DNA of 32,000 bases. It comes from Planctomycetales bacterium (GTDB lineage Bacteria > 4484-113 > JAFGCY01). Positions 6,670-32,000 of the stretch are shown here, one piece after another. The stretch spans positions 2,490,001 to 2,522,000 of the forward strand of contig CP060262.1 of NCBI GenBank assembly GCA_022646745.1, in the 5' to 3' direction. The position numbers were made by a program, and so were the translations under genes. Numbering within the stretch: position 1 is the first letter of the stretch; the number at the start of each line of letters is the position of its first letter. The notes below the pieces were generated by a model, which was not told where the DNA came from, did not search any database, and worked only from the letters and a program-made list of their open reading frames with translations.

Positions 6670-6750
6670 GGCGTGTCAATTCCCGCGTCATGGGTATAAA
6701 ATGATTGCGATGGGACGAAGCTAATGCCACAGTTTCACAGAGGTGTTGAT

Positions 6751-8868
6751 ATGCGAATCGGGAATTACAACCGCCTTCTGGCGGTTTTGGTGTTTGTCAT
6801 TCTGGCTATCGGAGTGGCAAGCTGCGGTGGTGGGAGTGACCCGACTACCACCAATCCGGGCGAGATCAACGTAGGCAACAACAACCCGCCTGCGCAGAAT
6901 TTCGATGGCCCGAACCAGTACGACGGCAAGCAGCAGCCGGGAACTGCGGATCCCTTCGATCCCTCCCAGCCGATCCAGCAGAGCCTTGGTTCAAACATCT
7001 TCGCCGTTCCGACCAACAGCACCAACAACGCTCAGCTGCTGGCAAAGAGCTTCTCACCGGGCCAGAAGGTGGCCTTCGTGGCTGTGAACACGAACCCGGC
7101 CTACCTGGACGCCCACTACAACCCGGGCACCCAGAGCAGCCCGAACCTGCCCCAGTCGGCCTACTCCGTCAATGCGGACCTGGTCAGCAAGGGCACTTCC
7201 AGTGTGAACTACACGCTTGCGGACCTGCAGGCCGAGACCCTGCAGTCCCTGGGCGATATCAACAGTTACGCCGGCATGGACTACAGCCATATCCAGATGA
7301 GCCCGACCGCCCTCTATGAGCGCGAGGCCTATGCGAATGGCAATGTCCCCTTCGCTGCGGACGACACCATCAAGAGCACCTCCGCCCTGCAGAAGGGTGA
7401 GGTCCGCTACTTCCTGGCTGCCGAGCCGACCATCCCGCCGCCGACGATCAACCCCGGCCCCGAGGATCCGGAGAAGGACGTCCAGGACCTGCAGTGGCCG
7501 CCCGAGTACCTGTACAGCCAGGCCGGCCGCCTCGTGTCGATCGGTTCGCACTGCTACATCTGGCTGACCACCGAGGTCAACAACGGTAAGCCGGACAACG
7601 TGCAGTACACCGAGGCCCGCCTGAACCGCATGGCCCGTGAGTTCGACACGGTGATCTTCCCGACCCTGACCGAGGCCTTCGGTGAGGTCCAGAACTACGA
7701 TGAGCTCAACGTCTGGAAGGACCTTGACAAGAACGCAGTGCTGACCGGTGACGACTTCGACACCAACGGCGAGCTGCTGACCGAGCTGCCGGGCGAGCCG
7801 GATACCAACCTCCGCTTCGACCAGCGCATCAACATCTTCATCCACAACTCCTTCAACCCCGGCGGTTTCTACACCTGGGGCATCAGCCAGGAGACTGCGG
7901 ATGCACTGCGTGAGCAGGGTCGTGATGACCTGATCGAGCAGCTGGCAAACGTCGGTTCCACGCTCTACATCACTTCCGACAACTTCCCGAACAATGACGA
8001 CTCCTGGGATGCCGCCTTCTCCGTGATGGCGCATGAGTTCCAGCACAAGCTTTACGCTGACAACGGCATGCCGACCCGCCAGCGTGACCCCGAAGCCAAC
8101 TTCAGCTGGCTCAACGAGGGTATGTCCCAGCTTTCGATCCACCTCTGCGGTTACACCGTGAACAGTGGCAAGATCGTCCCCTGGGCCATCACCAACCAGG
8201 TGGTGCCCTACCTGCAGGACATCCAGCACGTGCCCGTGCCGACCGACGGTAACCCGCAGGTTGACACCATCTCCCAGTACGGCGCGACCTTCATGTTCTT
8301 CCTGTACCTGTACGAGCACTACGAGCCCGGCATCGGCAAGCGTATCTACGCTGCCGGCAAGAAGGGTGAGGAAGACCCGATCGCCCTCGTTGAAGTCGGG
8401 GCCCTGCAGAAGGTCGTGACGGACCTCGGCCCGGATGACACCCTCGGCACCGCCGACGATGTGGTCCAGGAAGTGAACGACACCTTCGAGCAGCTGTTCA
8501 CCAAGTACAGCATCGCGAACTTCATCGACGGCATCTACACCCCGCAGACCGCCGACCTGTTCGACCCGCGCTTCCACTACAACACGATTGACCTCAAGGG
8601 TACGATCAACCTCGCCGGCGGCACCGTGGTGCTGCCCGGTGTGAAGACCGGCGTGTTCCCGAGCAACGGTACCTACCCGATCAACTCGATCCACCGTGAG
8701 GTTCGCCCTTGGTGCTCCGATTACATCGTGTTCGGTGGCGGTGACGGCCGCGACCTGCAGATGAACTTCTACACTGACCAGCACATGAAGTTCTTCATGC
8801 TGCCCGTGACCTTCGATCCGGCGCAGAACGCAGTGACCATCACTCCGAATGTGGTGATCAACAACTAG
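6751..8868 (+). CDS. Lipoprotein, gluzincin-type zinc metallopeptidase (HExxH ... WLNEG)
   Basis: I prefer the ATG at 6751 because GAGGTG lies upstream. Lipobox VASC (LAIGVASCGGG). The metal site is MAHEFQHKLY followed 22 residues later by SWLNEGMSQ, a Glu third ligand as in M1/thermolysin-like clans. The exact MEROPS family was not determined. Confidence 0.7.
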   Translation: MRIGNYNRLLAVLVFVILAIGVASCGGGSDPTTTNPGEINVGNNNPPAQNFDGPNQYDGKQQPGTADPFDPSQPIQQSLGSNIFAVPTNSTNNAQLLAKSFSPGQKVAFVAVNTNPAYLDAHYNPGTQSSPNLPQSAYSVNADLVSKGTSSVNYTLADLQAETLQSLGDINSYAGMDYSHIQMSPTALYEREAYANGNVPFAADDTIKSTSALQKGEVRYFLAAEPTIPPPTINPGPEDPEKDVQDLQWPPEYLYSQAGRLVSIGSHCYIWLTTEVNNGKPDNVQYTEARLNRMAREFDTVIFPTLTEAFGEVQNYDELNVWKDLDKNAVLTGDDFDTNGELLTELPGEPDTNLRFDQRINIFIHNSFNPGGFYTWGISQETADALREQGRDDLIEQLANVGSTLYITSDNFPNNDDSWDAAFSVMAHEFQHKLYADNGMPTRQRDPEANFSWLNEGMSQLSIHLCGYTVNSGKIVPWAITNQVVPYLQDIQHVPVPTDGNPQVDTISQYGATFMFFLYLYEHYEPGIGKRIYAAGKKGEEDPIALVEVGALQKVVTDLGPDDTLGTADDVVQEVNDTFEQLFTKYSIANFIDGIYTPQTADLFDPRFHYNTIDLKGTINLAGGTVVLPGVKTGVFPSNGTYPINSIHREVRPWCSDYIVFGGGDGRDLQMNFYTDQHMKFFMLPVTFDPAQNAVTITPNVVINN

Positions 8869-8997: not shown

Positions 8998-10824
8998 ATG
9001 TCCAGGCAGCTATCAGGCATCCTGCTCACCATGCTTCTGCTGCTGCTCAGCAGCACGGCCTTTGCGGCATTCCGCAACCAGGTCCTCGCCGTTGACCTGA
9101 AGCAGTTCGATGGCCGTGAGGTGCTGCTCGTACGCAGCTCACACGACATGAGCGTGCAGACGGGCTACAACCGCAACGCGGATGCCGGCACGATCAGCAT
9201 CCTGCTGCCAGCGGTGGACAGCGGCCAGTTCGCCAGCTACATCGGCGACCATTCGCTGGTCACCGGCTTTGTCCTGCAGGACGGCCCGGATGGCTGCGAG
9301 CTGCAGGTCGGCCTGGCCCGCCCGGAGCTGACCAGCCAGCAGTTCCTGCGCATCAGCCAGCCCAGCCGCAAGAGCCTGATGCTGGAAGTCTTCAACTCCG
9401 ATGAGGATCGCAGCAGGCTGTCCCCCGTGGTGAACCCGCTGGACAGCCTGCAGCCCGGTGAGCTGGCTGAATACGTCAAGCCTGAGAGACGCTCCACGCC
9501 TTCAGAGCCCCAGCTCCCGGCAGTTGAGGTTTCCAGCCTGAATATCGCGACATTTGACTTGAGCGGCATGGACAGCCAGCAGGTGCTGTCACATGCAGCC
9601 AGGAGCGGCCTGCTCAACCTGAAGGGCCGTGTGGTGGTGGAGACCGAGGACATCGGCTCCCTGACCGTCACGCCGGCCGGCCAGAGCCTGGCCAACTGGA
9701 TGCCGGCCCAGCCGCCGGGGGAGATCTACCTGTCCGGCAATAAGAAGGAAATCAACGAGTTCCTCAACGGCCTGGAGGATGGCAGCATCTACAGCCAGGC
9801 GCCGCTCGATGAGTATTGGACGGAGAACAAGCCGGGCCGGCGCAGCAGCAGCTACCGTGACGGCAGCTCCGTGGACAGCCGCCGGCGCCTGAAGGATGAC
9901 CCGCATTCAGGTCTCTACTACGACGGATTCAGCCCGCAGGACACCCAGCTCAGCGACATCCGCGTCACGCTGCAGGCCCCGGGCGGGATGAACCTCTATG
10001 ACGTGATCAACTACCTGTCCGAGATCAGCGGCATCAGCATCATGATTGACCCGTATGCCTTTGATGAGCCGACCGGCGGCGTGCGTGACCCGAAGGTCCC
10101 GGAACCGCCCTCCGGCGCGGACGGCACCCCCGGCTTCCGCGGGGCCGACCAGTTCATGCCGCAGAATGCGGCGCGCGGTGGCACCTTCGTTGGCAACCTG
10201 GTCAACGTGCCCTTCGATACCGCGCTCAAGCTGATCCTCGGCACGCATAACCTCGAGTTCGCGGTCTACGGCGGTGGTGGCCGGGCCGGTCAGTCCGGCA
10301 GCTCGATGTCCAGTGACGGCAAGGCCCGCGCCTATGGCGACAAGCCGGTGATCCTCGTGACCAGCCCCGAGCGCCTCAACCAGGAGCTGGCGGGCACCAA
10401 CGAGATCAACATGTTCCAGTTCCACTACGCTGATCCTGAGGTCGTGACCGACATGCTCGACAGCCTCGGCATGCTGCCCGGCACCGATTCCGGCTGGTTC
10501 ATCTACCGCGGAGGCGGTGGCGGTTCCTTTGGCAACGGCGGCGGCGGCGGCGGAGGCGGCTTCGGTGGAGGCGGTGGCAACGGGGGTGGCGGTGGCCGCG
10601 GCCGGGTCGGCAGCGGTGGCTTCGCTCAGCGCATGAGCGGCGACGATGAGCTTGGTGGAACCGCCAGCCTGCGACGCAGCCGGGGCATGCTCGTTTACCG
10701 GGGCAGCAGCCGCCAGCCTGTGCTGCAGGAAGTGAGCGAGGCCCTGGAACAGGGCCGTGAAGTGATCCGCCTGATCCTCTCCCCGGAGCAGGATGGCCAG
10801 CTCGTGACCCTGTTCGCCAACTGA
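8998..10824 (+). CDS. Secreted AMIN-like plus secretin N0/N1-like protein with a poly-Gly tract and no secretin pore domain
   Basis: AAGGAG Shine-Dalgarno. Signal peptide MSRQLSGILLTMLLLLLSSTAFA. The N-terminal beta domain is AMIN-like (VLAVDLKQFDGREVLLVRSS...LMLEVF). IRVTLQAPGGMNLYDVINYLSEISGISIMIDP and NVPFDTALKLILGTHNLEF follow the PilQ N0 pattern. NMFQFHYADPEVVTDMLDSL is N1-like. Then comes GGGGGSFGNGGGGGGGGFGGGGGNGGGGGRG and only about 70 more residues. Confidence 0.65.
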   Translation: MSRQLSGILLTMLLLLLSSTAFAAFRNQVLAVDLKQFDGREVLLVRSSHDMSVQTGYNRNADAGTISILLPAVDSGQFASYIGDHSLVTGFVLQDGPDGCELQVGLARPELTSQQFLRISQPSRKSLMLEVFNSDEDRSRLSPVVNPLDSLQPGELAEYVKPERRSTPSEPQLPAVEVSSLNIATFDLSGMDSQQVLSHAARSGLLNLKGRVVVETEDIGSLTVTPAGQSLANWMPAQPPGEIYLSGNKKEINEFLNGLEDGSIYSQAPLDEYWTENKPGRRSSSYRDGSSVDSRRRLKDDPHSGLYYDGFSPQDTQLSDIRVTLQAPGGMNLYDVINYLSEISGISIMIDPYAFDEPTGGVRDPKVPEPPSGADGTPGFRGADQFMPQNAARGGTFVGNLVNVPFDTALKLILGTHNLEFAVYGGGGRAGQSGSSMSSDGKARAYGDKPVILVTSPERLNQELAGTNEINMFQFHYADPEVVTDMLDSLGMLPGTDSGWFIYRGGGGGSFGNGGGGGGGGFGGGGGNGGGGGRGRVGSGGFAQRMSGDDELGGTASLRRSRGMLVYRGSSRQPVLQEVSEALEQGREVIRLILSPEQDGQLVTLFAN

Positions 10825-16623: not shown

Positions 16624-19600
16624 TCAGTCCCCGGAGCCAGCCTGCTCAAGCACCTGCTGCAGCACGTCGCCAAGTTCCTTCAGCTTGAGCGGTTTGTGCA
16701 GGTATTCCGTGATGCCGATGTCCCGTGCGCGTTCAGGGGCCAGGGTCTGGCTGTAGCCGGTGCACATCACGACCGGGATCCCGGGGCGCAGTTCCAGGAT
16801 GCGCCGTGACAGTTCCTCGCCTGTCATCTGCGGCATCGTCTGGTCGGTCAGCACCAGGTCGAATGCGTCCGGGTCCGCACTGAAGCAGCGCCAGGCCTGG
16901 GGCCCGCCCTGGCAACTGGTGACCTCGTAGCCCAGCACGGTGAGCATCTCACTGACGATCTCGATGATCATCGCCTCGTCGTCAACCAGCAGCACCCGGC
17001 CACGGCCGCTGCGCTGGGCCTTCTCCAGTGACTCGCCACTCTGGCTCTCAGTCTCACACAGCGGCAGGTAGACGCTGAAGCGCGTCCAGTGGGCCGGGCG
17101 GCTGCGCACCTCGATCACACCCTGCAGGCTGTGCACGATGCCATGCACGACTGACAGGCCCATTCCTGTGCCCATCCCGACCTCCTTCGTGGTGAAGAAG
17201 GGCTCGAAGATGCGCGAGATGTGCTCCTCGGCGATGCCGTCCCCGGTGTCCTCCACGTCGAGGCGCAGGTAGGGGCGCAGCTGAGTGCCGGAGTGCTGCA
17301 TCAGGAAGTCGTCATCCGGCAGGAATTCCGTGAGGCTGACCGTCAGCGTGCCGCCCTGTTCCATCATCGCATGCCCGGCGTTGGTGCACAGGTTCATCAG
17401 CAGCTGGTGGACCTCCGTGGCGTTGGCAAGCACGGTGCTGTTGGCCGCCTCCAGCCGCTGCACGATCTCAACGGTGGCCGGCAGCGATGCCCGCAGCAGC
17501 TTGAGCACCTCGCGCACCAGCAGGTCGACGCGCAGCGGGTTCTGGCTGCTCTCCTTCTTGCGGGCGTAGGACAGCACCTGGCGCACCAGCTCGGCGGCCC
17601 GGCTGCTGGCATCGATGATCGCCTGCAGGTAGTTGCCCGCGCTGCTGTGCTGCGGCAGGCAGTCCATCGCGATCTCTGCGTTGCCAACGATCGCGAACAG
17701 GATGTTGTTGAAGTCATGTGCGATGCCGCCCGCCAGCGTGCCGATCGCCTCCATTTTCTGGCTCTGCTTGAGCTGCTCCTCCATCGCAAGCTGGCGCGTC
17801 ACGTCACGCTTGACCGCCACGTAGCCGGCCAGTTCACCACGGCTGTCGCGCACGGGTGAGATGGTGGCCTCCTCCTGGTAGATCGAGCCGTCCTTGCGGC
17901 GGTTGATGAAGGTGCCGTGCCAGACCTCGCCGCGGCTGATCTGCTGCCACATCTCTCGGTGGAACTGCTCCTCCATCTCGCCGCTGGACAGCAGGCGCGG
18001 CGTGCTGCCGATCGCCTCCTGCCGGCTGTAGCCGGTGATCGCCTCGAAGGCCGGGTTTACATAGGTGATCACACCGCGGCTGTCGGTTGTCATGATCGCC
18101 TCATGCGCGCTCTCCACCGCGATCACCACCTGCCGCAGCTGGTTCTCCGCCGCATTCTGTTCCGTCACGTTCCGTACAATCGCCAGGCTGACACCGTGTC
18201 CCGAGGGGTCGATCGACATCTCGCAGTCCAGCAGCACGTCAATCAGCGTGCCGTCACTGCAGATGTAGGTGAACGGGATGTCGTGGATCCGGCCGACGCG
18301 CTGGAACTGCGGGTCCACCACCTCGCGCATGCTCTGTACCGACTCCGGCGTCATCAGGAAGTCCCCGCGGTGGCCGATCACCTCCTCGCGGCTGTAGCCG
18401 GTCTCGTCCAGCCACTTCTGGTTTACGTCGATGATGAAGCCCTCACTGTCAATCGAGTACATCATCACCGGCGCGTTGTGGTAGAAGTGGCGGAACTTCT
18501 CCTCGTTGGCACGCAGCAGCTCAAGAGTGCGTTCCTGCTCGGTGATGTCCTGCACGATGCCGCTTGAACCGAGGAAGCTGCCGTCGCTGGCTGTGTTCGG
18601 GTTCGAGCTGATGAGGCAGATGCGCTGCTCATCATCACTGCGCGTGATGCGCAGGCGGTAACTGCTGCCCATCCCGGCCTGGCGCAGGCGGTCCTGGCGG
18701 TTGACAACGGAGACCTGGTCATCGTCAAGGAATTCCGTGATTGCCCGTCCGTCCAGCCCGCCCCGCTCCACGCCCATGATGCGCTCAAGTGCGGGGTTGG
18801 CGAACCGGAAGCGGTTCTCACCATCGACCACGAAGATGCCCTCGCTGATGTCATTCACCAGCGTGCGGTACTTCTCCTCACTCTCCCGCAGCACCTCCTC
18901 GGTGCGCATCTGTTCCGTCACGTCACGCACAAGCGCCAGGCTGCCGATGTATTCACCATCCTGCGAGAAGCGCGGGCTGGCGGTCACCAGGGCGATGCGT
19001 ACCGGGCCAGAGAGGGGGCGGATGCGCATCGTGTAGCTGTTGCTCTGGCCCTGGCGGCGCAGTTCCTGCTGCCCGTTGATCCGCTGCCGTTCCTGCTCGT
19101 CCATGAACTCGTACATGCTGCGCCCGCTGGCGCTGCCCTCGGCCAGCCCGAGGATCCGCTCCAGTGCGGGATTGGCAAACTCGAACACACCGCTGGCATC
19201 CACAGTGGCAAGGCCTTCGGACATCTGCTCCACCAGCGTGCGGTAGCGCCGCTCGTTGTCGCGGATCGCCTCCTCAGCCTGGCGCATCTCGGTGACGTCC
19301 TGCACCAGTGCGTGGCTGCCGATGAAATCGCCGGTGCTGTTGTAGCGCGGGGACACCGACAGGTAGAGGTCGCGCACCTGGCCGTCAGCGCGCTGGATGC
19401 GCAGTTCGTAGCGGTTGGAGCTGCCCCCGCGCCGCAGGTCATGCTGGCGGTCCGCCACCTTGATCATTTCGCCACTGAGGAATTCACGGATGTTGCGGCC
19501 GACCAGGTGCTCCGGATGCAGGCCCATGATCCGCCCCAGGGCTGGGTTGGCATAGACGAAGTTGCCGTCCGGGTCCGCCATGCTCAGGCCCTCGAACATG

Positions 19601-21414
19601 GTGTCCACCAGGCCGCGGTACTGCCACTCGCTCTCGCGCAGGCGGTCGGAGGATATGCGGCGCTGGATTGCCAGCGCAATGTATCCGGAGAGGTAGCTCA
19701 CCAGCTCCACGTCCTGCTGGCTGTACACGGCATAGGTGCGGTAGTCCTGCAGCACGATCACACCGTTGACATTCTCGCCGTCTGACAACGGAACACCGAG
19801 CCAGGACATGCTGAGCGGCCCATGGGGCCTGATCAGGCCCTGCGTGCGCATCTTTTGCTGCTCATCGCGGTTGACAACCATTGGCCGGCCCTCGCGGCGC
19901 ACGATGTCCGTCAGGCTGCCATCCATCGGCTGCGGCTGGAAGTCCTCGTCCAGCTCATCAATGTGGAAGGGAAATTCGTACAGCTCGGTCTGCGGGTTGT
20001 ACAGCGAAACGTAGAAATTGCTGGCCGGTACGAGGCTGCCCAGCGCCCGGTGCACCGTTGCCAGCAGCTCCTCCAGGCTGGCTGTACGGCTTGTGGCCTC
20101 GGAAATCTCCAGCAGCAGGGCCTGGATGCGCTCCGCTCGTTCCCGCTCTGTCACATCCTGCGCCATGCCCACCAGCCGGCGGGGAACGCTTGCCGGGCCG
20201 GGCATCATCCGGCCACGCACGCGCAGGATGCGCTGGCGACCGGTACTCGTAAGTATCCGGATGTCGCAGGAGAGTTCCTTGCGGTCCTGCAGTGCGCTGC
20301 GGTACTGGCGCAGCAGCTGGCTGCGGTCCCGTGGCATCACATGACGCAACAGGCTGGAAATCGCCACCGGTTCACTGGGGGACAGGCCGAAGATGCGGCT
20401 GAGCTCATCAGTGAGGATGATCTGGTCCTGTCCGGCCTCGTATTCCCAGCTGCCCATGCCGGCCAGTTCCTCGCCGATCGCAAGCCGGGTCTCGCTTCGT
20501 TCGATGCTTGAGGCGGTGCGGCGCGCTTCGGTGATGTCGGTTGTCAGCAGTGCCAGGCCGATGATGTGCCCGCTGGCATCGCGGATCTCCAGCTGCCGGG
20601 CGCTCACCGAGACCAGCTCACCGGAGGCGGAGACAAACTCCAGCTCCTGTTCGGCGGAAGCCGGCAGGGCAGGCAGGCCGCCGCTTCGCCATGAGCGGGA
20701 ATCCTGCAGGATTCCGCCTGGCTGCAGGCTGCTGATGCTGCGCCCTTCGATGCCCATCAGGCTCAGGCCGAGCATCCCGCAGAATGCGGGATTGGCAGTG
20801 ATGATCGTCTGGCGGTCGCGGGTGTCCAACAGCACCATCCCCTCGCGGCTGTTGTCAAAGAAGCACTGCAATGTCGGTGAGAGTGCCGGGTCGCTGGAGG
20901 GCGGGGCAGTGTAGCCCGCTGGTTGGCTGAATGACAGCCTGACGGAACTGAGGGGCTGGTCATTGCCGGACTGGCTCTGCAGGCTGGCATGCAGCACCCG
21001 CGATCCACGCTGGCCGCGGTCCAGTTCACATTCGAACTGCATGCTGCTACCCGGCTGGCGCAGGAATTCCAGCAGGCGGGTCTCGATGTCCACACTGCAG
21101 CGCCCCAGCAGGCTGAGTACAGCCTGGTGCACACTCAGGCCGCTTTCTCCCGGGTCCGCCAGTGCCATGAACTCCGGGCTGGGGTCCACCCAGTGGATCA
21201 GTGCGTGGATGTCTTCCGGCAGGTTGATGAATGGTCCACTGAGGTCTGTGTTTCCGCTTTGTCCGGGGTTGAGGCTGGCCAGCTTTGCAGCCAGACGGCG
21301 CAGGTCGGCGCTGACACTTGCCCGGCCGGGCTGCTGCCGGGATTCTGCATGGAGCTGGACGGCTTCGCTTGCCCCATGCTTTTCCCTGTTTTCCGCTGGA
21401 AGCTTACCTTCCAT
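16624..21414 (-). CDS. Hybrid sensor histidine kinase with about 7 PAS modules, a GAF-like segment, HisKA, HATPase_c and a C-terminal receiver
   Basis: H-box GGIAHDFNNILFAIVGNAEIA, G2 box GTGMGLSVVHGIV and receiver RVLLVDDEAMI...DLVLTDQTMPQMTG. PAS cores recur as NPA[FL]xxI[LMT]G. A GAF-like block runs LEELLATVHRALGSLVP...NGVIVLQDY. Confidence 0.95.
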   Translation of the reverse strand: MEGKLPAENREKHGASEAVQLHAESRQQPGRASVSADLRRLAAKLASLNPGQSGNTDLSGPFINLPEDIHALIHWVDPSPEFMALADPGESGLSVHQAVLSLLGRCSVDIETRLLEFLRQPGSSMQFECELDRGQRGSRVLHASLQSQSGNDQPLSSVRLSFSQPAGYTAPPSSDPALSPTLQCFFDNSREGMVLLDTRDRQTIITANPAFCGMLGLSLMGIEGRSISSLQPGGILQDSRSWRSGGLPALPASAEQELEFVSASGELVSVSARQLEIRDASGHIIGLALLTTDITEARRTASSIERSETRLAIGEELAGMGSWEYEAGQDQIILTDELSRIFGLSPSEPVAISSLLRHVMPRDRSQLLRQYRSALQDRKELSCDIRILTSTGRQRILRVRGRMMPGPASVPRRLVGMAQDVTERERAERIQALLLEISEATSRTASLEELLATVHRALGSLVPASNFYVSLYNPQTELYEFPFHIDELDEDFQPQPMDGSLTDIVRREGRPMVVNRDEQQKMRTQGLIRPHGPLSMSWLGVPLSDGENVNGVIVLQDYRTYAVYSQQDVELVSYLSGYIALAIQRRISSDRLRESEWQYRGLVDTMFEGLSMADPDGNFVYANPALGRIMGLHPEHLVGRNIREFLSGEMIKVADRQHDLRRGGSSNRYELRIQRADGQVRDLYLSVSPRYNSTGDFIGSHALVQDVTEMRQAEEAIRDNERRYRTLVEQMSEGLATVDASGVFEFANPALERILGLAEGSASGRSMYEFMDEQERQRINGQQELRRQGQSNSYTMRIRPLSGPVRIALVTASPRFSQDGEYIGSLALVRDVTEQMRTEEVLRESEEKYRTLVNDISEGIFVVDGENRFRFANPALERIMGVERGGLDGRAITEFLDDDQVSVVNRQDRLRQAGMGSSYRLRITRSDDEQRICLISSNPNTASDGSFLGSSGIVQDITEQERTLELLRANEEKFRHFYHNAPVMMYSIDSEGFIIDVNQKWLDETGYSREEVIGHRGDFLMTPESVQSMREVVDPQFQRVGRIHDIPFTYICSDGTLIDVLLDCEMSIDPSGHGVSLAIVRNVTEQNAAENQLRQVVIAVESAHEAIMTTDSRGVITYVNPAFEAITGYSRQEAIGSTPRLLSSGEMEEQFHREMWQQISRGEVWHGTFINRRKDGSIYQEEATISPVRDSRGELAGYVAVKRDVTRQLAMEEQLKQSQKMEAIGTLAGGIAHDFNNILFAIVGNAEIAMDCLPQHSSAGNYLQAIIDASSRAAELVRQVLSYARKKESSQNPLRVDLLVREVLKLLRASLPATVEIVQRLEAANSTVLANATEVHQLLMNLCTNAGHAMMEQGGTLTVSLTEFLPDDDFLMQHSGTQLRPYLRLDVEDTGDGIAEEHISRIFEPFFTTKEVGMGTGMGLSVVHGIVHSLQGVIEVRSRPAHWTRFSVYLPLCETESQSGESLEKAQRSGRGRVLLVDDEAMIIEIVSEMLTVLGYEVTSCQGGPQAWRCFSADPDAFDLVLTDQTMPQMTGEELSRRILELRPGIPVVMCTGYSQTLAPERARDIGITEYLHKPLKLKELGDVLQQVLEQAGSGD

Positions 21415-25727: not shown

Positions 25728-28040
25728 TCAGAAGCCGCCGTTGAGGTAGTCCACCGGGTTGAAGCAGGAGGTCGGCTTGTTGTGGATGAACAGCACCTTC
25801 TCGGTGATGCCGATGCGATTCTTCACGATGTCCAGCACGGCGAACTCGCTGTTCATCTCGCGGAACTCATCGCTTTGCATGTGCTTCTGCTCGATCTCGG
25901 CCAGCTTCTGCTGGATCTTCGTGACCTTGCCCTCGAGCGGTGTTCCGGAGTAGCTCTCGCGGTAGTACTCCTTCAGCTCATCGAGGTTCGTGCGCAGGCG
26001 CGAGATCATGAACACCGTGTCGGCGAACTGCGTGCTGTGCAGCAGCTCGAGCACGGCCGGGTTGTTCTCCAGGAACTGGTGGGTGCTGTTGCCACGGTTG
26101 AAGTACTCAAAGGTGGCGAGGATGGTGACGTCCAGCTCGCGGGCCATCGCCTTTAAGTGGCTCGTGAGGATGTCAACGTCTATCTCGCGGCCGCCCGTTC
26201 CGTCTCCGTTGAGGCTGGCCTTGCCGCTGCGGGCTCGCAGCATGGCGACCATCAGCTGCAGGGAGTCGATCACCAGAAGCACGCTGGAGTGGTTCGCACC
26301 CTGCTCCTCGAGTTCGAGCTTCTTGTCCAGCACCAGCTGGCGGATCCCCTCCAGGCTGCCGGCTGCGCTGCCTTCGAGGATCGTGATGTTGTCACTGAAG
26401 GTCTGGTACTTCTCGAAGGCCGAGAACATCCTGCGGTTGAATTCCTTGTCCTCGTACAGCTCGGAGGGCTTGCGGCGCTTGTCGTCAATCATCGGGCTGG
26501 GGATCTTGCCGATGTAGGACAGGCTGCGCTTGAAGACCTCCTCCACACCACGCTGCAGGCCGACGAACAGGCACTGCGCGTCACTGTTCATCGCCGCCTC
26601 ATTCATCATCTGCAAGACGAAGGTCGATGTACCGGTGCCGGGGATGCCGGCCACGACGTACAGGTTGCCGGGATACAGGCCACCGGAGAGCGTACGGTTC
26701 AGGTGCTCGCTCTGGGTCGGCAGCACCTGGCGGCGGTCGTCGAACAGGCGGCGCAGTAGCGTCGGGCCGAGCTGCTTCAGGGAGGTGATCCCGCCGGCGG
26801 ACTCAGCCTGGCTGTAGAAGATGTTGGCGATCACGTCCCGCTCGTCAGACTTGGAGTCACGCTCCAGGCTGGCGCGGAAGGACTTGAAGAAGTCACTGGC
26901 CTTGCTGATCGTCTCCGGCCAGCGGCTGCGTGAGGGCAGGTCCGGGCGCCTGAGCGAGAACTCGTGCAGGCGCTGGTAGCTCATCTTCTTGAAGGCCGTG
27001 TAGCTCATGCGGATCTTGTAGATCTCGCGGCCGTCGATTGTCAGGATCGTGCCCGGGATGTTCGTGATCAGGTCCGGGCGGTAGGCTGACAGGTCAATCT
27101 GGCTGAAGGCCGCACTGCGCTCCGGGTTGTCAGGGTCGACACCGATCGTGGCGCAGGTCATGCGGCGGAAGATCTCATGCAGGTTGCGGCTCGGGGTGAT
27201 GCCGAACACGGTGTAGTCCACGTGCACGCTGATGTGCTGGCTGGTGTAATACACCGTCACCGCGTCATAGGGGACGTCGTAGTTCTGCTTGAAGCGCTCG
27301 ACGAGGTCGATCGCCTGGTTGATGGCGTGCACGATCTCGGCGGAGCTGCCGGCCTTGAACACCACGTAGTAGTCGCCCAGCAGCATCACGCGGCTGCTGC
27401 CGATCTGCTTCTGCAGTTCCTCGTGGTTGCCGGTGTTGTACAGGAAGTGCGAGCAGTACACATTGCTTCGGTACTGGCTCATGAATTCCTCGAGCTGGTC
27501 CAGGCGGATCATCAGCCCGCGGCCGAAGCCGCGCTGGCCGGCGTAGTTGATCTGCACCGGGCGCAGCTTGCCGTCGTCACTTTCAGAAGGGGCGAAGTGC
27601 CCGACCTCGACGAAGCGGAACTCACCGAGGTCCTCGCTGGCAATGGCGGACTGGCCAGTGCTTTCAGACACCGATTCACCTGAGTCGGCGGCTCCGCCAC
27701 CGATTTCCTCGAGCTCGACATTGAGCGTGCGGGCGAGGTCGGCGGCCGCCTGGTTGTACTCCTTGCCGAGGATCAGCGCGAACATGGTCAGCAGGTCCTC
27801 CCCGCCGTAGTTCATGTTGCTGGCCTCGCAGTACAGGTTGCGGCAGTAGGCTGTGCGGGAGTCCTGCTCGATCACGAGCGTCATCTTGGAGCGGTCGTTG
27901 CAGACGGGGCAATAAGCCTGGATCTCGTTGTCAGTGGCGTGGTAGTCACCCTTGCTGACACCCAGCTCCTGCAGGAAGGTGGACGCATCGAGCCGGGCCC
28001 GCAGCTTGTCCAGCGATTCCTTCGTGTACTTCTGATTCAT
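25728..28040 (-). CDS. Three-domain protein: CHC2-like primase zinc finger, AEP (PriS)-like domain and DnaB-like SF4 helicase C-terminal domain, with substituted catalytic motifs
   Basis: 770-aa ORF with native GC3-rich codon usage. The zinc finger is AYCPVCNDRSKMTLVIEQDSRTAYCRNLYC...GGEDLLTMFALILGKEYNQAAADLA. The middle segment has LLGDYYVVF, VYYTSQHISVHVD and IDLSAYRPDLITNIPGT in the order of AEP motifs I-III. The C-terminus has GGLYPGNLYVVAGIPGTGTSTF, LLVIDSLQLM, HLKAMARELDVTILATFEYFNR, FADTVFMISR and LDIVKNRIGITEKVLFIHNKPTSCF, colinear with DnaB motifs H1-H4. Confidence 0.85.
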   Translation of the reverse strand: MNQKYTKESLDKLRARLDASTFLQELGVSKGDYHATDNEIQAYCPVCNDRSKMTLVIEQDSRTAYCRNLYCEASNMNYGGEDLLTMFALILGKEYNQAAADLARTLNVELEEIGGGAADSGESVSESTGQSAIASEDLGEFRFVEVGHFAPSESDDGKLRPVQINYAGQRGFGRGLMIRLDQLEEFMSQYRSNVYCSHFLYNTGNHEELQKQIGSSRVMLLGDYYVVFKAGSSAEIVHAINQAIDLVERFKQNYDVPYDAVTVYYTSQHISVHVDYTVFGITPSRNLHEIFRRMTCATIGVDPDNPERSAAFSQIDLSAYRPDLITNIPGTILTIDGREIYKIRMSYTAFKKMSYQRLHEFSLRRPDLPSRSRWPETISKASDFFKSFRASLERDSKSDERDVIANIFYSQAESAGGITSLKQLGPTLLRRLFDDRRQVLPTQSEHLNRTLSGGLYPGNLYVVAGIPGTGTSTFVLQMMNEAAMNSDAQCLFVGLQRGVEEVFKRSLSYIGKIPSPMIDDKRRKPSELYEDKEFNRRMFSAFEKYQTFSDNITILEGSAAGSLEGIRQLVLDKKLELEEQGANHSSVLLVIDSLQLMVAMLRARSGKASLNGDGTGGREIDVDILTSHLKAMARELDVTILATFEYFNRGNSTHQFLENNPAVLELLHSTQFADTVFMISRLRTNLDELKEYYRESYSGTPLEGKVTKIQQKLAEIEQKHMQSDEFREMNSEFAVLDIVKNRIGITEKVLFIHNKPTSCFNPVDYLNGGF

Positions 28041-28167
28041 CTGCTACCTGTCACGACCTTGATTGCCCGAAGGCGCATTTTAGCACGACCACATCCGGCA
28101 GGCGGAAGGCCGGCCCGATGAGATCAGTTGCGTGTCACGACCCAGGCGGCTGCGATGTCCGTGGAAG

Positions 28168-28210
28168 TTATCCACCTGGCTGCTGGATTGTACTGTATTT
28201 CCGTGGATAA
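28168..28210. promoter_or_regulatory. Pair of inverted DnaA-box-like 9-mers
   Basis: TTATCCACC (28168-28176, plus strand) and TTATCCACG (reverse complement of 28202-28210) each match TTATCCACA at 8 of 9 positions. Both are embedded in a repeated TCCGTGGA context, 130-170 bp upstream of the 25728-28040 gene. Confidence 0.35.
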
Positions 28211-29679: not shown

Positions 29680-30087
29680 ATGCAGGTCGCACACGCTGAA
29701 ATCATTTCGGCCATCAACCAGGCGCTGGCCAGCCGTGGACTGAGCGGCAGGGTGGCGCTGCTCGAAATCGAGCCGCCGCGTGACTGGGGCGTGAGCAGCA
29801 ATGTCTGCTTCATGCTTGGGCGCGAGGCCGCCGCGGATGAGATATCCAGGCAGACCGAGGGGCTCGGCAAGAAGGAAGCCAAGCAGCTCAGCGGCCAGCT
29901 TGCCAACGAGGCAGGCGTGCGGCTGGCGAGTGAACTGGCCGGCGAGCTGCAACGGGCCGCGCTGCCATACATTGGCAGGGTGGAGGCCGAGGGTGCCTAC
30001 CTGAACTTCTACTACGATGCGCAAAGACTCAGTGCGCATGTGCTGAGCAGCGTGCTGGCACAGGGCGCGCAGTTCGGCGGCGAGTAG
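29680..30087 (+). CDS. argS: Arginyl-tRNA synthetase N-terminal (Add-1, tRNA-binding) domain as a stand-alone 135-aa ORF
   Basis: IEPPRDWGVSSNVCFMLGRE and RVEAEGAYLNFYYDAQRLSAHVLSSVLAQGAQFGGE align with E. coli ArgRS QFGDYQANGMMAVAKK and [27 protein letters not shown]...LG. The ORF stops at TAG 30085-30087, exactly where the catalytic core should begin. Confidence 0.6.
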   Translation: MQVAHAEIISAINQALASRGLSGRVALLEIEPPRDWGVSSNVCFMLGREAAADEISRQTEGLGKKEAKQLSGQLANEAGVRLASELAGELQRAALPYIGRVEAEGAYLNFYYDAQRLSAHVLSSVLAQGAQFGGE

Positions 30088-30147
30088 GCAGAAGAAGTTG
30101 GCAGTTGGCAGAAGCAGAAGCAGAAGCAGAATGAGAATCAGGAACAG
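30087..30147 (+). repeat. Purine-rich hexamer microsatellite (GCAGAA-like units) at the left end of the argS insert
   Basis: GGCAGAAGAAGTTGGCAGTTGGCAGAAGCAGAAGCAGAAGCAGAATGAGAATCAGGAACAG. Confidence 0.8.
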
Positions 30148-30335
30148 TGGGCAGGGGAGCGCGTAGCGCAGGCGAAGCCCAAGCTGCGCAGACCATTGCA
30201 GACTTCATCACAGGTCAAACCTGCAAAGTTTGTTGGATCTGGAATTCTGCTTGATTAACCTCCTTTCATTTGGAATCTCTTGATTGCCAACTACGTGATC
30301 GGTCAAGGAAAGCGTAGCTTCCTCACGCCTCCGTT

Positions 30336-30432
30336 GTGCGACTTGCGCCGCACTTCCATTGCCTGGCTTGCGCCAGACCGTCGCGCCGAGCTTGCGCTCG
30401 ACCTCCGCGCCTGGCTTGCGCCAGACCTCCGT
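30336..30432. repeat. Four tandem 24-bp units, each a 5-bp stem with a TTGC-centred loop
   Basis: u0 30336-30359 GTGCGACTTGCGCCGCACTTCCAT. u1 30361-30384 GCCTGGCTTGCGCCAGACCGTCGC. u2 30385-30408 GCCGAGCTTGCGCTCGACCTCCGC. u3 30409-30432 GCCTGGCTTGCGCCAGACCTCCGT. The stems are CTGGC/GCCAG in u1 and u3 and CGAGC/GCTCG in u2. Confidence 0.85.
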
Positions 30433-30768
30433 GCAGTAGAACTGCCGGCAGTTTCCGCATTGCTGCGAATATGTCCTCCGTACACAGGTATTCGCGGGAG
30501 CACCTTCAAGCTCCGCTGGGCCAGTGACCGCCTCCGGAGAGCACACTACCTTGGTTGGTTGCCAGACTTTCGCCAGGCCTCTGAAGCCTGAATGACATCA
30601 GGCCTCCGATGCCGGACTCATATCCAGCCTCCGTGGGACACCGTCCCCGCGTCCGGGATGGCAGTGGGAAAGGGAGCCATCCGTGTCGTACATGTACTTT
30701 CGCTAGCTGTTCCTATTTTCCTTAACAATCGTAAAGTGTCAAGGAATATGAATGTTAAAGTACAAAAA

Positions 30769-30801
30769 GAGCAATGAAGATTGAGCAATGAGCAATGAGC
30801 C
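30769..30801 (+). repeat. Heptamer microsatellite (GAGCAAT-like, 4 units) near the right end of the argS insert
   Basis: GAGCAAT GAAGATT GAGCAAT GAGCAAT GAGCC. AGCAATGAG (30791-30799) can pair with CTCATTGCT (30857-30865). Confidence 0.8.
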
Positions 30802-30900
30802 AGACAGGCACCGAGGTGACATCTGTGCTGGCAGTCTCTTTGATCAGTCTTCAGCACTCATTGCTTCTTCAGCAGGCACTAAAATAGGCAGTCCCTAGCT

Positions 30901-32000
30901 ATGACTGAGTCACTGCACAACAAGCGCCGCATCATGGTTGAGTACGCGCAGCCCAATACCCACAAGGATTTCCACGTGGGACACCTGCGCAACGCGAGCA
31001 TAGGCCAGGCGATCGCCAACCTGCTGGAATTCCAGGGGCACGGCGTGTACAAGGCGACCTACATCGGCGATGTCGGGGCACATGTGGCCAAGGCGATGTG
31101 GGGCGAAATTCACCTCAGCGATCAGCAGTACGCCGATCAGTTCGCCGAGGCGATTGCGGTGAAGGACAGCCCTGACAGGCTGCTGTTCTGGGGCAGCTGC
31201 TACCGTGCAGGCAACCTGTTGTCGGATGATCCTGAGGTCAAGCAGCAGCAGCGCGCCTGGCTGAAGGCCTGGGAGGACAACCCGGATGGCGAGGAGCGCA
31301 GGAGCTGGATGCAGTCGCGCAACGAGTGTGATGAGGCCTTCCGGGCGATCTTCGATGAACTGCTGCTGCAGTTCACCGCGGAGCCGGACCTGTGGTTCTA
31401 CGAGTCCACGGTTGACGACACCAAGCTCGGGCAGAAGACCGCCCAGGAGCTGCTGGAGCGCGGCATCGCTGAAATTGACGACAGCGAGGAATACAAGGGC
31501 TCGATGTTCGTCGACTTCGAGAAGCAGGCTGATGCACTGAAGCCTGACGGCACACCGGTGTTCCGTGACGACGAGAAGAAGAAGATCCGCAAGCTGGGCA
31601 AGATGGTGATCCTGCGCAGCGATGGTACCAGCCTGTACCAGACGAAGGAGCTGGGGCTGGCCAAGCACAAGTTCGACCTGATCCGCGAGACCACCGGCAG
31701 CGAGTTGCAGGAGAGCCTGTACGTCGTCGGCGCTGAGCAGAAGCTGTACTTCCAGCAGGTGCTGGCGATCCTCAGGCTGTGGGGCTTCCCGAACGCGGAG
31801 AACTGCCGCCATATTGACTACGAGCTGGTCGTGCTGCCCGAAGGCAAGATGAGCAGCCGTGCCGGAAGCATCGTGTCCTACCGCGACCTGCGGGATGAGG
31901 CACTGCGCCGCGCGGAGGAGACCGTGCGCGAGAAGGGCATCATCACGGATGAGGCGCAGATCAGGGAGACGGCGCAGGCGATTGCCATCGCAGCGATCAA
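30901..32000 (+). CDS. argS: Arginyl-tRNA synthetase catalytic core (class I), separate ORF; 3' end runs off the window
   Basis: Absent from the ORF track because it has no stop in the window. Hand translation gives MTESLHNKRRIMVEYAQPNTHKDFHVGHLRNASIGQAIANLLEFQGHGVYKATYIGDVG... with the HIGH-type motif HVGH. Later come ILRSDGTSLYQTKELGLAKHK and GKMSSRAGSIVSYRDL, the ArgRS counterpart of KMSKS. It is colinear with E. coli ArgRS from about residue 118 onward. The 300-aa minus-strand ORF 30910-31812 in the track is its antisense shadow. Confidence 0.92.
   Translation, partial: MTESLHNKRRIMVEYAQPNTHKDFHVGHLRNASIGQAIANLLEFQGHGVYKATYIGDVGAHVAKAMWGEIHLSDQQYADQFAEAIAVKDSPDRLLFWGSCYRAGNLLSDDPEVKQQQRAWLKAWEDNPDGEERRSWMQSRNECDEAFRAIFDELLLQFTAEPDLWFYESTVDDTKLGQKTAQELLERGIAEIDDSEEYKGSMFVDFEKQADALKPDGTPVFRDDEKKKIRKLGKMVILRSDGTSLYQTKELGLAKHKFDLIRETTGSELQESLYVVGAEQKLYFQQVLAILRLWGFPNAENCRHIDYELVVLPEGKMSSRAGSIVSYRDLRDEALRRAEETVREKGIITDEAQIRETAQAIAIAAI

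Follow-up and report, generated by a model that had tools for sequence, protein, structure and literature searches.

RESULTS

A chromosomal protein family with primase-helicase architecture and replaced catalytic residues

In a 32,000-nucleotide (nt) stretch of the genome of a Planctomycetales bacterium (contig CP060262.1, positions 2,490,001 to 2,522,000; hereafter, the window), the minus strand encodes a 770-amino-acid (aa) protein, from an ATG start to a TGA stop, that consists of three modules: a DnaG-type zinc-binding domain, a domain with the archaeo-eukaryotic primase (AEP) fold, and a DnaB_C domain. As judged from alignments with its homologues, the residues that would carry out the chemistry of both enzyme parts are replaced family-wide, namely, the motif I aspartates, motif II histidine, and motif IV arginine of the AEP domain and the Walker A lysine and catalytic glutamate of the DnaB_C domain. 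Selection has nonetheless conserved the protein, so that a new, non-enzymatic job is probable. Our favored reading is that the gene probably encodes an exapted, doubly inactivated mobile-element primase-helicase, which would serve as a scaffold or ring that binds nucleotide or DNA without hydrolysis, as an accessory of replication or repair.

The 770-aa product matches the NCBI entry "hypothetical protein H7A35_09880" (Planctomycetales bacterium, 4.1-Mb contig) at 100% identity. When 5.8 billion proteins were searched through a word index, 53 homologues were found, mostly full length and with identities down to 32%, every one of which derives from metagenome-assembled genomes or metagenomes; several carry the automatic Joint Genome Institute (JGI) name "replicative DNA helicase." Three more divergent representatives were added from an exhaustive profile search to give a family of 56 members (32 to 100% identity). 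Across more than 40 genomes and metagenomes, at identities as low as 32%, the open reading frames (ORFs) of the family are intact and encode ~740 to 780 aa. Because the whole pattern of features described below recurs across the 56 homologues, it is far beyond chance.

Direct scans of the N-terminal 436 aa against Pfam and NCBIfam gave no significant match, and a profile of this part gave only a chance match against PDB sequences. Since direct profile scans gave nothing, the N-terminal folds were assigned by structure prediction and by a profile search of 1.84 billion proteins. The model of the N-terminal 436 aa, predicted from a 20-sequence alignment, had a predicted local distance difference test (pLDDT) score of 82.8, and the full-length AlphaFold model scored 81.3; model confidence was high even though the models were built on alignments of just 20 to 30 sequences. 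An earlier reading of the window, made from its sequence only, had described a zinc finger, an AEP-like domain, and a DnaB-like domain; in our profile and fold searches, the three segments indeed landed in DnaG-type zinc-binding, AEP, and DnaB_C folds rather than in unrelated ones.

Two catalytic residues of the DnaB_C domain are replaced within a conserved nucleotide pocket

DnaB_C (PF03796) was the sole Pfam domain detected in the 770-aa protein, where it covers residues 440 to 760 and nearly the whole model (E = 1e-17; 64.9 bits versus a gathering score of 27). Foldseek matched this region to DnaB from Escherichia coli, Vibrio, Geobacillus, and Aquifex and to SPP1 G40P (E of ~1e-12 to 4e-13), with template modeling scores (TMt) of 0.70 to 0.73 against isolated ATPase domains (G40P, 0.73; C-terminal domain of E. 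coli DnaB, 0.70) and of 0.66 to 0.70 against the T7 gp4 helicase domain. Helicase motifs mapped by phmmer to E. coli DnaB and by BLASTP to a plasmid primase-helicase fell at the same positions. The colinearity with DnaB motifs noted in the sequence-only reading was borne out by the Pfam score and by the phmmer alignment, which likewise placed the substituted blocks VGLQRG, FEYFNR, and LLHSTQFAD on FSLEMP, SQLNR, and DLRESG-EQDAD of DnaB: motif H3 pairs TFEYFNR with LSQLNR, and motif H4 pairs ELLHSTQFAD with DLRESG..EQDAD. Alignment and codon position also agree that threonine at residue 471 (codon ACA, 26628 to 26630) stands in place of the Walker A lysine.

Lysine is found at position 471 in none of the 56 family members, which instead carry Thr (46), Ser (3), Met (3), Ile (2), Ala (1), or Val (1), and the position of the catalytic glutamate, 496, is Gln in 55 members and Glu in 1. 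The rest of the pocket is nearly invariant. Within the P-loop, Gly465 is conserved in 54, Pro467 in 56, Gly468 in 55, and Gly470 in 56 of the 56 sequences, and position 472 is either Ser (42) or Thr (14); Asp592 (56) and Gln595 (54) on the Walker B side, Thr643 (56), Glu645 (55), Gln671 (54), and Asp674 (56) elsewhere in the pocket, and Lys740 (56), Asn741 (55), and Arg742 (54) of the arginine finger behave in the same way. With two catalytic residues swapped for specific alternatives and the remainder fixed, the pattern seen in the alignment is unlike that of a decaying site.

The protein thus keeps the DnaB_C fold, the H1-to-H4 motif order, Walker B, the glutamine, and the arginine finger of DnaB, but it is without the DnaB N-terminal domain (PF00772), to which the 770-aa protein gave no match in a Pfam scan, the Walker A lysine, and the catalytic glutamate. 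Taken at face value, the JGI name would make it the replicative helicase of its lineage, a DnaB orthologue that possibly also primes. The detection of DnaB_C alone by Pfam, the single copy per locus in a housekeeping context, and the position of one relative with an intact GKT (P0075; see below) between secA and guaB would fit such a role. Nevertheless, we consider this very unlikely, given that the protein scored 61.2 bits against the NCBIfam DnaB equivalog TIGR00665, far below the cutoff of 385.25, lacks the N-terminal domain, and is missing the lysine and glutamate needed for translocation; every bacterial replicative helicase known to us is an active ATPase. No second DnaB-like gene was found near the family gene in 24 loci, and it is scarcely credible that the 770-aa protein is the only DnaB homologue in its genomes. 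The pipeline name is therefore almost certainly wrong, and it would distort attempts to reconstruct replication in these genomes.

The middle domain has an AEP fold with substituted catalytic motifs

Four independent lines of evidence assign the middle domain to the AEP fold. When the N-terminal model was compared with the PDB, almost every one of the 30 best matches after the zinc-binding domain was an AEP, including LigD PolDom, Prim-PolC, Pyrococcus PriS, human and yeast Pri1, and CAPP, at modest E values (2e-3 to 1e-1). Viral folds (BFVD) gave stronger matches to the middle domain (best E, 5.7e-17; TMt, 0.60), among them an "AE_Prim_S_like domain containing protein" (E = 1.5e-13), Pseudomonas phage PMBT3, and the DNA primase of Salinibacter phage M8CC-19. 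A hidden Markov model of the middle domain, searched against 1.84 billion representatives, retrieved 123 proteins at E ≤ 1e-3, 6 of which belong to the family and 117 of which lie outside it. These outsiders are mostly AEP-plus-PriCT primases; those that we sampled are either ~340-aa proteins with PriCT_1 and a weak PF01896 match or 650- to 980-aa fusions to DnaB_C, MCM, or DUF3987. Among these, P0063 matches primases that are annotated in Bacillus phage 0305phi8-36, the BcMCM prophage phBC6A51, and Thermus phages P23-45 and G20c. In hhalign, the family aligned with 22 active AEP-PriCT relatives over 207 columns (99.8%; E = 5.4e-29), and the profile of these relatives itself matches Sulfolobus PriS (1zt2); AEP-PriCT primases also match PF01896. 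Curated AEP profiles in Pfam and NCBIfam, such as PF01896, matched neither the window protein nor any of 20 relatives, and no PriCT was detected after the AEP domain in the same 21 proteins. Toprim, the DnaG-type polymerase domain, had no match between the zinc-binding domain and the helicase part.

MAFFT, hmmalign, and hhalign located the AEP motifs consistently. The first aspartate of motif I is replaced by Val (47 of 55 sequences), Ile (5), Thr (2), or Ala (1) and is never acidic, and the second is Asn (25), Glu (9), Lys (8), Asp (4), or another residue. At the motif II histidine, the family has Glu (41), Ser (6), Gln (4), Thr (2), Ile (1), or Lys (1), never His; the window protein has Ser271. 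The motif III aspartate is kept as Asp316 in the window protein and as Asp in 40 of 55 members (Asn in 9, Lys in 3, Ser in 2, and Arg in 1). The motif IV arginine is replaced, by Asn327 here and by Asn (22), Pro (10), Ala (9), His (7), or other residues in the family, and the P-G-[TS] of this motif is retained. Given that ~100 of the 117 outsiders retain DxD, SGxGxH, and hD, the substituted motifs of the family are the derived state. The sequence-only reading had picked out three AEP motif blocks here. The fold and the equation of TSQHIS with SGxGxH stand, whereas its equation of GDYY with DxD was mistaken: the DxD position lies three to five residues away, at V227-F228-K229, and the GD of GDYY belongs to a conserved pre-motif that is also present in active relatives ("GDFYADFD").

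A contrasting explanation is that the protein is a very divergent but active NTPase/helicase, primase, or both, which would use noncanonical residues. The near invariance of the remaining nucleotide pocket, arginine finger included, is in line with this idea, as are the retained Asp316 and a set of new invariant polar or acidic residues in the AEP domain (Glu145, Glu248, Asp275, Asp323, and His238); moreover, the motif II histidine is dispensable in some active AEP families (PMC5862659). However, the Walker A lysine occurs in 0 of 56 members, Gln replaces the catalytic Glu in 55 of 56, and an acidic first residue of motif I occurs in 0 of 55. Replacement of DID by LIL in motif I or of R by A in motif IV (R231A), changes equivalent to those in the family, abolishes the primase and polymerase activities of PolpTN2 (PMC5862659), and the retention of the canonical triad by most outsiders marks the substitutions as derived. 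We therefore regard a divergent enzyme as improbable. Of the two options that the sequence-only reading had left side by side, the scaffold that has lost its chemistry is much better supported than the very divergent active enzyme.

The N-terminal zinc-binding domain is of the DnaG type

The best PDB match of the predicted N terminus was the zinc-binding domain of Geobacillus stearothermophilus DnaG (1d0q; Foldseek probability, 1.0; TMt, 0.76), followed by that of the Aquifex primase, and the viral fold search matched many phage proteins labeled "Zinc finger CHC2-type." The four ligands, C44-P-V-C47 and C66-x4-C71, lie in a zinc-ribbon fold that is followed by a helical bundle. The DnaG-type layout proposed earlier, with its CPVC and its GGEDLL helix, is thus supported by the 1d0q match, with the correction that the second cysteine pair is spaced C-x4-C, not C..C. 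The domain is present in 43 of 56 members: C44 is found in 43, C66 and C71 in 42 each, and position 47 is Cys in 31, His in 11, and Arg in 1, the His variant (CPFH) being that of the distant clade. The zf-CHC2 profile (PF01807) fell below detection for the window protein, and it matched 4 of 20 relatives, all from the CPFH clade (best E, 1.3e-7); precomputed annotation with PF01807 also exists for P0042 to P0044.

The gene is resident and under purifying selection

Codon usage of the gene is host-like, with a GC content at third codon positions (GC3) of 0.90 and a relative synonymous codon usage that correlates with that of the other window genes (r = 0.95). We collected 16 orthologous genome loci, with a GC content of 42 to 67%. 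The gene is single-copy per locus and has housekeeping surroundings; in 8 or 9 of the 16 loci (34 to 100% identity), it is placed divergently beside argS, a gene resembling acetyl-coenzyme A synthase/carbon monoxide dehydrogenase (ACS/CODH), and a YbjN-family gene. This synteny extends to the most distant clade and is consistent with vertical inheritance across the lineage.

Purifying selection acts on every domain of the protein. The ratio of nonsynonymous to synonymous substitution rates (dN/dS) could be used for two orthologous loci (L002 and L003), more distant orthologues being saturated (dS > 1 or undefined). Relative to these orthologues, which are 87% identical in amino acid sequence with an unsaturated dS of ~0.37, dN/dS was 0.22 overall, 0.17 to 0.19 for the zinc-binding domain, 0.20 to 0.22 for the AEP domain, and 0.21 for DnaB_C. 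Neighboring genes had dN/dS values of 0.12 to 0.37; the primase-helicase-like gene had the lowest dS among them, and its amino acid identity was near the top of the range for the neighborhood.

Since the closest enzymatically intact relatives of the protein are phage and plasmid genes, we weighed whether the gene could be mobile-element cargo, left over from a prophage or plasmid, or could be decaying or wrongly sequenced. These possibilities are effectively refuted. The ORFs are intact across the family at a dN/dS of ~0.2, and a sequencing variant or decaying gene is excluded because the orthologues are likewise without canonical GK[ST] or DxD. Besides the host-like codons and the chromosomal synteny, no integrase, phage, or conjugation gene was found among the window neighbors, and tRNA and Rfam scans of the window were empty, in keeping with the earlier statement that mobile-element neighbors are absent. 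No family member was found in 2.9 million viral contigs (IMG/VR), and searches of 50,697 phage and 72,556 plasmid records returned only partial similarity to the DnaB_C domain and linker, at ≤48% coverage and <30% identity; we accordingly rejected the candidate of a phage- or plasmid-borne family gene. The view in the sequence-only reading that this is a resident gene rather than cargo therefore holds.

The origin of the protein from a mobile-element primase-helicase type, together with the loss of catalysis and the retention of oligomerization-type features (the linker helix and arginine finger), would also suit a dominant-negative decoy, that is, a dead copy of a phage primase-helicase that co-assembles with and poisons the AEP-DnaB replication proteins of invading phages or plasmids. 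This idea seems remote: PADLOC gave no defense-system match, neither the window nor the conserved positions had a defense-island context, and the deep argS synteny and purifying selection contrast with the patchiness of defense genes.

Relatives on plasmids, phages, and chromosomes

Profile and pairwise alignments show homology of both the AEP module and the DnaB_C module to their counterparts in phage and plasmid AEP-plus-DnaB_C primase-helicases. One such enzyme is an 875-aa protein (WP_320002361.1) of plasmid pAL20118a from Cyanobacterium aponinum, whose gene is followed by a PolA-like gene. It carries DID and SGNRGFH in its AEP domain and GPANGKST, FSFEMS, IDYLQLM, and DKNRTG in its DnaB_C domain, aligns with residues 397 to 768 of the window protein (E = 4e-23), and shares with it a long helical insertion before the last strands. 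P0094 similarly joins AEP and DnaB_C domains with intact motifs in both, and in P0069 the N-terminal zinc-binding domain seen here is joined to an active AEP and DUF3987. In mobile-element AEP-(PriCT)-DnaB_C proteins, as in the window protein, the AEP domain lies upstream of a DnaB_C domain of the same C-terminal subtype, with the linker and the helical insertion. In contrast to the window protein, however, they have intact DxD, SGxGxH, GK[ST], and Glu, possess PriCT, and have no zinc finger, and their genes lie on plasmids or phages beside a polymerase gene, whereas the window gene is chromosomal, has no detectable PriCT, and has both sites ablated.

Among active proteins, those most closely related to the middle domain are the phage AEP-PriCT primases (0305phi8-36 ORF181, phBC6A51 BcMCM, P23-45, and G20c). 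Both groups have G[DN][FY][YF] before motif I, "P-G/N-[ST]," and "LYKI.LS"; the phage proteins differ in having intact catalytic motifs and PriCT_1, in being stand-alone or fused to MCM, and in being phage encoded. The overall plan also resembles that of T7 gp4 and Twinkle, which have an N-terminal Cys4/CHC2 zinc domain, a primase domain, and a C-terminal superfamily 4 (SF4) RecA fold, but their primase is of the Toprim/DnaG type and that of the window protein is an AEP, making this an analogy rather than membership. The primase part of metazoan Twinkle is likewise degenerate; gp4 and Twinkle are active NTPases.

Several uncharacterized chromosomal relatives, partly or wholly inactivated and belonging to other lineages, occupy housekeeping contexts like that of the window gene. 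The P0075 family (~10 proteins, one labeled Acidobacteriota) has the zinc-binding domain, a dead AEP, a long Ala/Pro-rich linker, and, as its difference from the window protein, an intact GEGKT; the P0075 gene (L017, 10001 to 12493) is the one between secA and guaB. This family may represent an intermediate stage or else a noncanonical helicase that is active. P0068 (L023, 10001 to 12793) likewise appears to have the zinc-binding domain and a dead AEP, with a degenerate P-loop and no Pfam match. P0057 (L019, 10001 to 11119; also in L020 and L021) is a stand-alone 372-aa dead AEP with IQFK for DxD, and thus with neither the zinc-binding domain nor DnaB_C; it ranks first among the relatives outside the family (E = 9e-26), and its context is conserved (infB-rbfA-DHH, the gene, and then rnc-nusB-rpmF).

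Fusions of AEP to DnaB, RepA, or MCM ATPases have been described for the PrimPol-PV1 supergroup of mobile elements (PMC5862659). The remark in the sequence-only reading that no described family has this combination is therefore too broad for AEP fused to a DnaB-family ATPase, but it holds for the doubly inactivated form: we found no literature description of a chromosomal, lineage-wide version with an N-terminal DnaG-type zinc finger and both enzyme parts inactivated. The comparisons are consistent with capture of a mobile-element primase-helicase in which primase chemistry was lost first and ATPase activity later, an order that we propose because the P0075 family combines a dead AEP with a live P-loop.

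A proposed role without catalysis

Given that the nucleotide pocket (the P-loop glycines, Ser/Thr472, the Walker B aspartate, Gln595, and K-N-R) and the linker helix are conserved, we propose that oligomerization and nucleotide binding have been retained. With its conserved linker helix (residues 421 to 434) and arginine finger, the protein would still assemble a DnaB- or gp4-like oligomer. Nucleotide would be bound at the subunit interfaces and not hydrolyzed, acting as structural glue or as a switch, and the zinc-binding domain and the dead AEP shell would be modules for binding DNA or a partner. The assembly could then assist chromosome replication or repair without catalysis, for example as a ring, clamp, or adaptor that works at the fork or in helicase loading, and would be neither motor nor primase. 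Glu-to-Gln is the classic hydrolysis-dead substitution, and a change of this same type, E343Q, is the mutant form of T7 gp4 in the deposited complex with single-stranded DNA and dTTP (6n7i), one of the Foldseek matches.

Several observations weigh against this reading or narrow it. Loss of the Walker A lysine usually weakens nucleotide binding as well, not hydrolysis alone, and the binding-only model may be wrong, with the pocket binding something else. P0056 and one further member, the most divergent of the family, lack the KNR arginine, which hence is not strictly essential; nor is the zinc-binding domain, which is missing from 13 of 56 members, some of them possibly fragments (the six that we inspected, P0031, P0034, P0039 to P0041, and P0045, start close to the AEP-like domain). 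As the dispensability of the motif II histidine in some active AEPs implies, loss of that residue alone is not diagnostic. Finally, the functional part of the proposal is inferred from conservation. No functionally informative gene partner is conserved, and the adjacency to argS is probably neutral synteny.

A bolder version, which we hold to be possible but rather unlikely, is that the doubly dead, phage-type primase-helicase was recruited by this uncultivated lineage as a core structural subunit of replication, a DnaB-like ring or adaptor that would bind nucleotide without hydrolyzing it and would load, tether, or regulate the true helicase or primase. For instance, the retained arginine finger would be donated within a hetero-oligomer, or the protein would replace a loader of the DnaC/DciA type. 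If so, bacterial chromosome replication would have domesticated replication genes of mobile elements in one more, new case. A part in the replisome or in helicase loading would add a new loader or adaptor solution beside DnaC, DnaI, and DciA and would place an archaeo-eukaryotic-type primase fold inside bacterial chromosomal replication.

On our favored reading, of an exapted and doubly inactivated protein, the family would be a clean natural case of a host-captured mobile-element replication enzyme kept over tens of percent divergence with both catalytic centers disabled. It would also offer a naturally occurring test of the DnaB ATPase site, in which just Lys-to-Thr and Glu-to-Gln have changed and the rest of the pocket is held, which suggests binding without hydrolysis.

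Features of the locus

The coordinates of the features assigned to the gene and its upstream region are collected in Table 1.

TABLE 1 Features of the primase-helicase-like gene and its upstream region, in window coordinates
Feature	Position	Strand	Basis
Extended -10-like element, TGCTAAAAT, 37 to 45 nt 5' of ATG	28077..28085	-	Consensus match only
Whole gene, 770 aa plus TGA stop	25728..28040	-	ORF; identical database protein
DnaG-type zinc-binding domain, residues 1 to 114, then GGEDLL helix	27699..28040	-	Foldseek; ligand conservation; CHC2-type phage matches
Zinc ligands C44; C47; C66; C71	27909-27911; 27900-27902; 27843-27845; 27828-27830	-	
Disordered, fast-evolving Gly/Ser/Glu-rich linker, residues 115 to 137	27630..27698	-	pLDDT <50; length and sequence variable
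AEP-fold domain, residues 138 to 400, catalytic residues replaced; best-conserved part of the protein	26841..27629	-	Fold searches; profile search; hhalign
AEP motif I (DxD) position, V227-F228-K229	27354..27362	-	Alignment to active relatives (G[DN]FY.D.D)
Nearly invariant family-specific helix after motif I strand, S233 to E248 (SAEIVHAINQAIDLVE)	27297..27344	-	Family alignment; predicted structure
AEP motif II (SGxGxH) position, T266-S-Q-H-I-S271	27228..27245	-	Alignment to active relatives (YFSGxKGxH)
AEP motif III (hD) position, I315-D316	27093..27098	-	Alignment to active relatives (.D..hYD); here I-D316-LSAYR
AEP motif IV flange (R-h-P-[GN]-S) position, T326-N-I-P-G-T331	27048..27065	-	Alignment to active relatives
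Flexible segment and conserved linker helix LKQL.PTLLRRLFD before RecA fold, residues 401 to 436	26733..26840	-	Alignment with pre-helicase segment of plasmid primase-helicase
DnaB_C (SF4, RecA-fold) domain, residues 437 to 770	25731..26732	-	Pfam PF03796; Foldseek
Walker A, G465-I-P-G-T-G-T471-S-T; Thr (ACA, 26628-26630) for Lys; DnaB ..SMGKTT, plasmid GPANGKST	26622..26648	-	
V-G-L-Q496-R-G-V-E-E; Gln for catalytic Glu (DnaB FSLEMP, plasmid FSFEMS)	26538..26564	-	
Walker B/H2, L-V-I-D592-S-L-Q595-L-M, retained (VIDSLQLM versus IDYLQLM)	26250..26276	-	
Arginine finger, I-V-K740-N-R742-I-G, retained (VKNRIG versus DKNRTG)	25809..25829	-	

Upstream of the gene, the pattern TGnTA[GA]AAT recurs ~35 to 45 nt before the start in nearly all of the orthologous loci (L001 to L016), and the extended -10-like element suggests a conserved dedicated promoter with a short leader. 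A repeat in the leader, GGTCGTGAC, was dropped as a candidate; it is confined to the close clade and is not enriched window-wide (14 observed versus 8.3 expected).

Two exact TTATCCAC octamers, the core of a DnaA box, lie in inverted orientation 130 to 170 nt upstream of the start, at 28168 to 28175 (+) and 28203 to 28210 (-). The 32-kb window, for which 0.28 copies would be expected, contains no others. L002 and L003 share one of the pair, a variant occurs in L004, and the octamers are absent from the distant clade. Locally improbable and kept in the closest relatives only, the pair is a lead rather than evidence.

The other window neighbors include a convergent TetR regulator, an ArsP-type permease with an HMA domain, a PD40 beta-propeller protein, and an ABC transporter, among others. 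A 1,596-aa hybrid histidine kinase with GAF, at least five PAS, HisKA/HATPase, and receiver domains is encoded at 16624 to 21414 (-) and keeps its place beside the locus in the close clade. Two adjacent ORFs, at 6724 to 8868 (+) and 8998 to 10824 (+), encode proteins of 714 and 608 aa that have no Pfam match, with a host-like GC3 of 0.85.

The argS gene of the window, at 29680 to 31941 (+), is interrupted. Residues 38 to 146 of ArgRS are encoded at 29752 to 30078 (the ORF stops at 30087), and residues 154 to 461 are encoded at 30928 to 31941, in the same frame as the first part. The 850-nt spacer between them has a low GC content (0.54), matched no Rfam family, and is rich in repeats (CAGAAG, four copies; CCTGGCTTGCGCCAGACC, two copies; and GAGCAAT, three copies). 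The sister strain (L001) has this spacer at 93% identity, and most of it is missing from L002 and L003.

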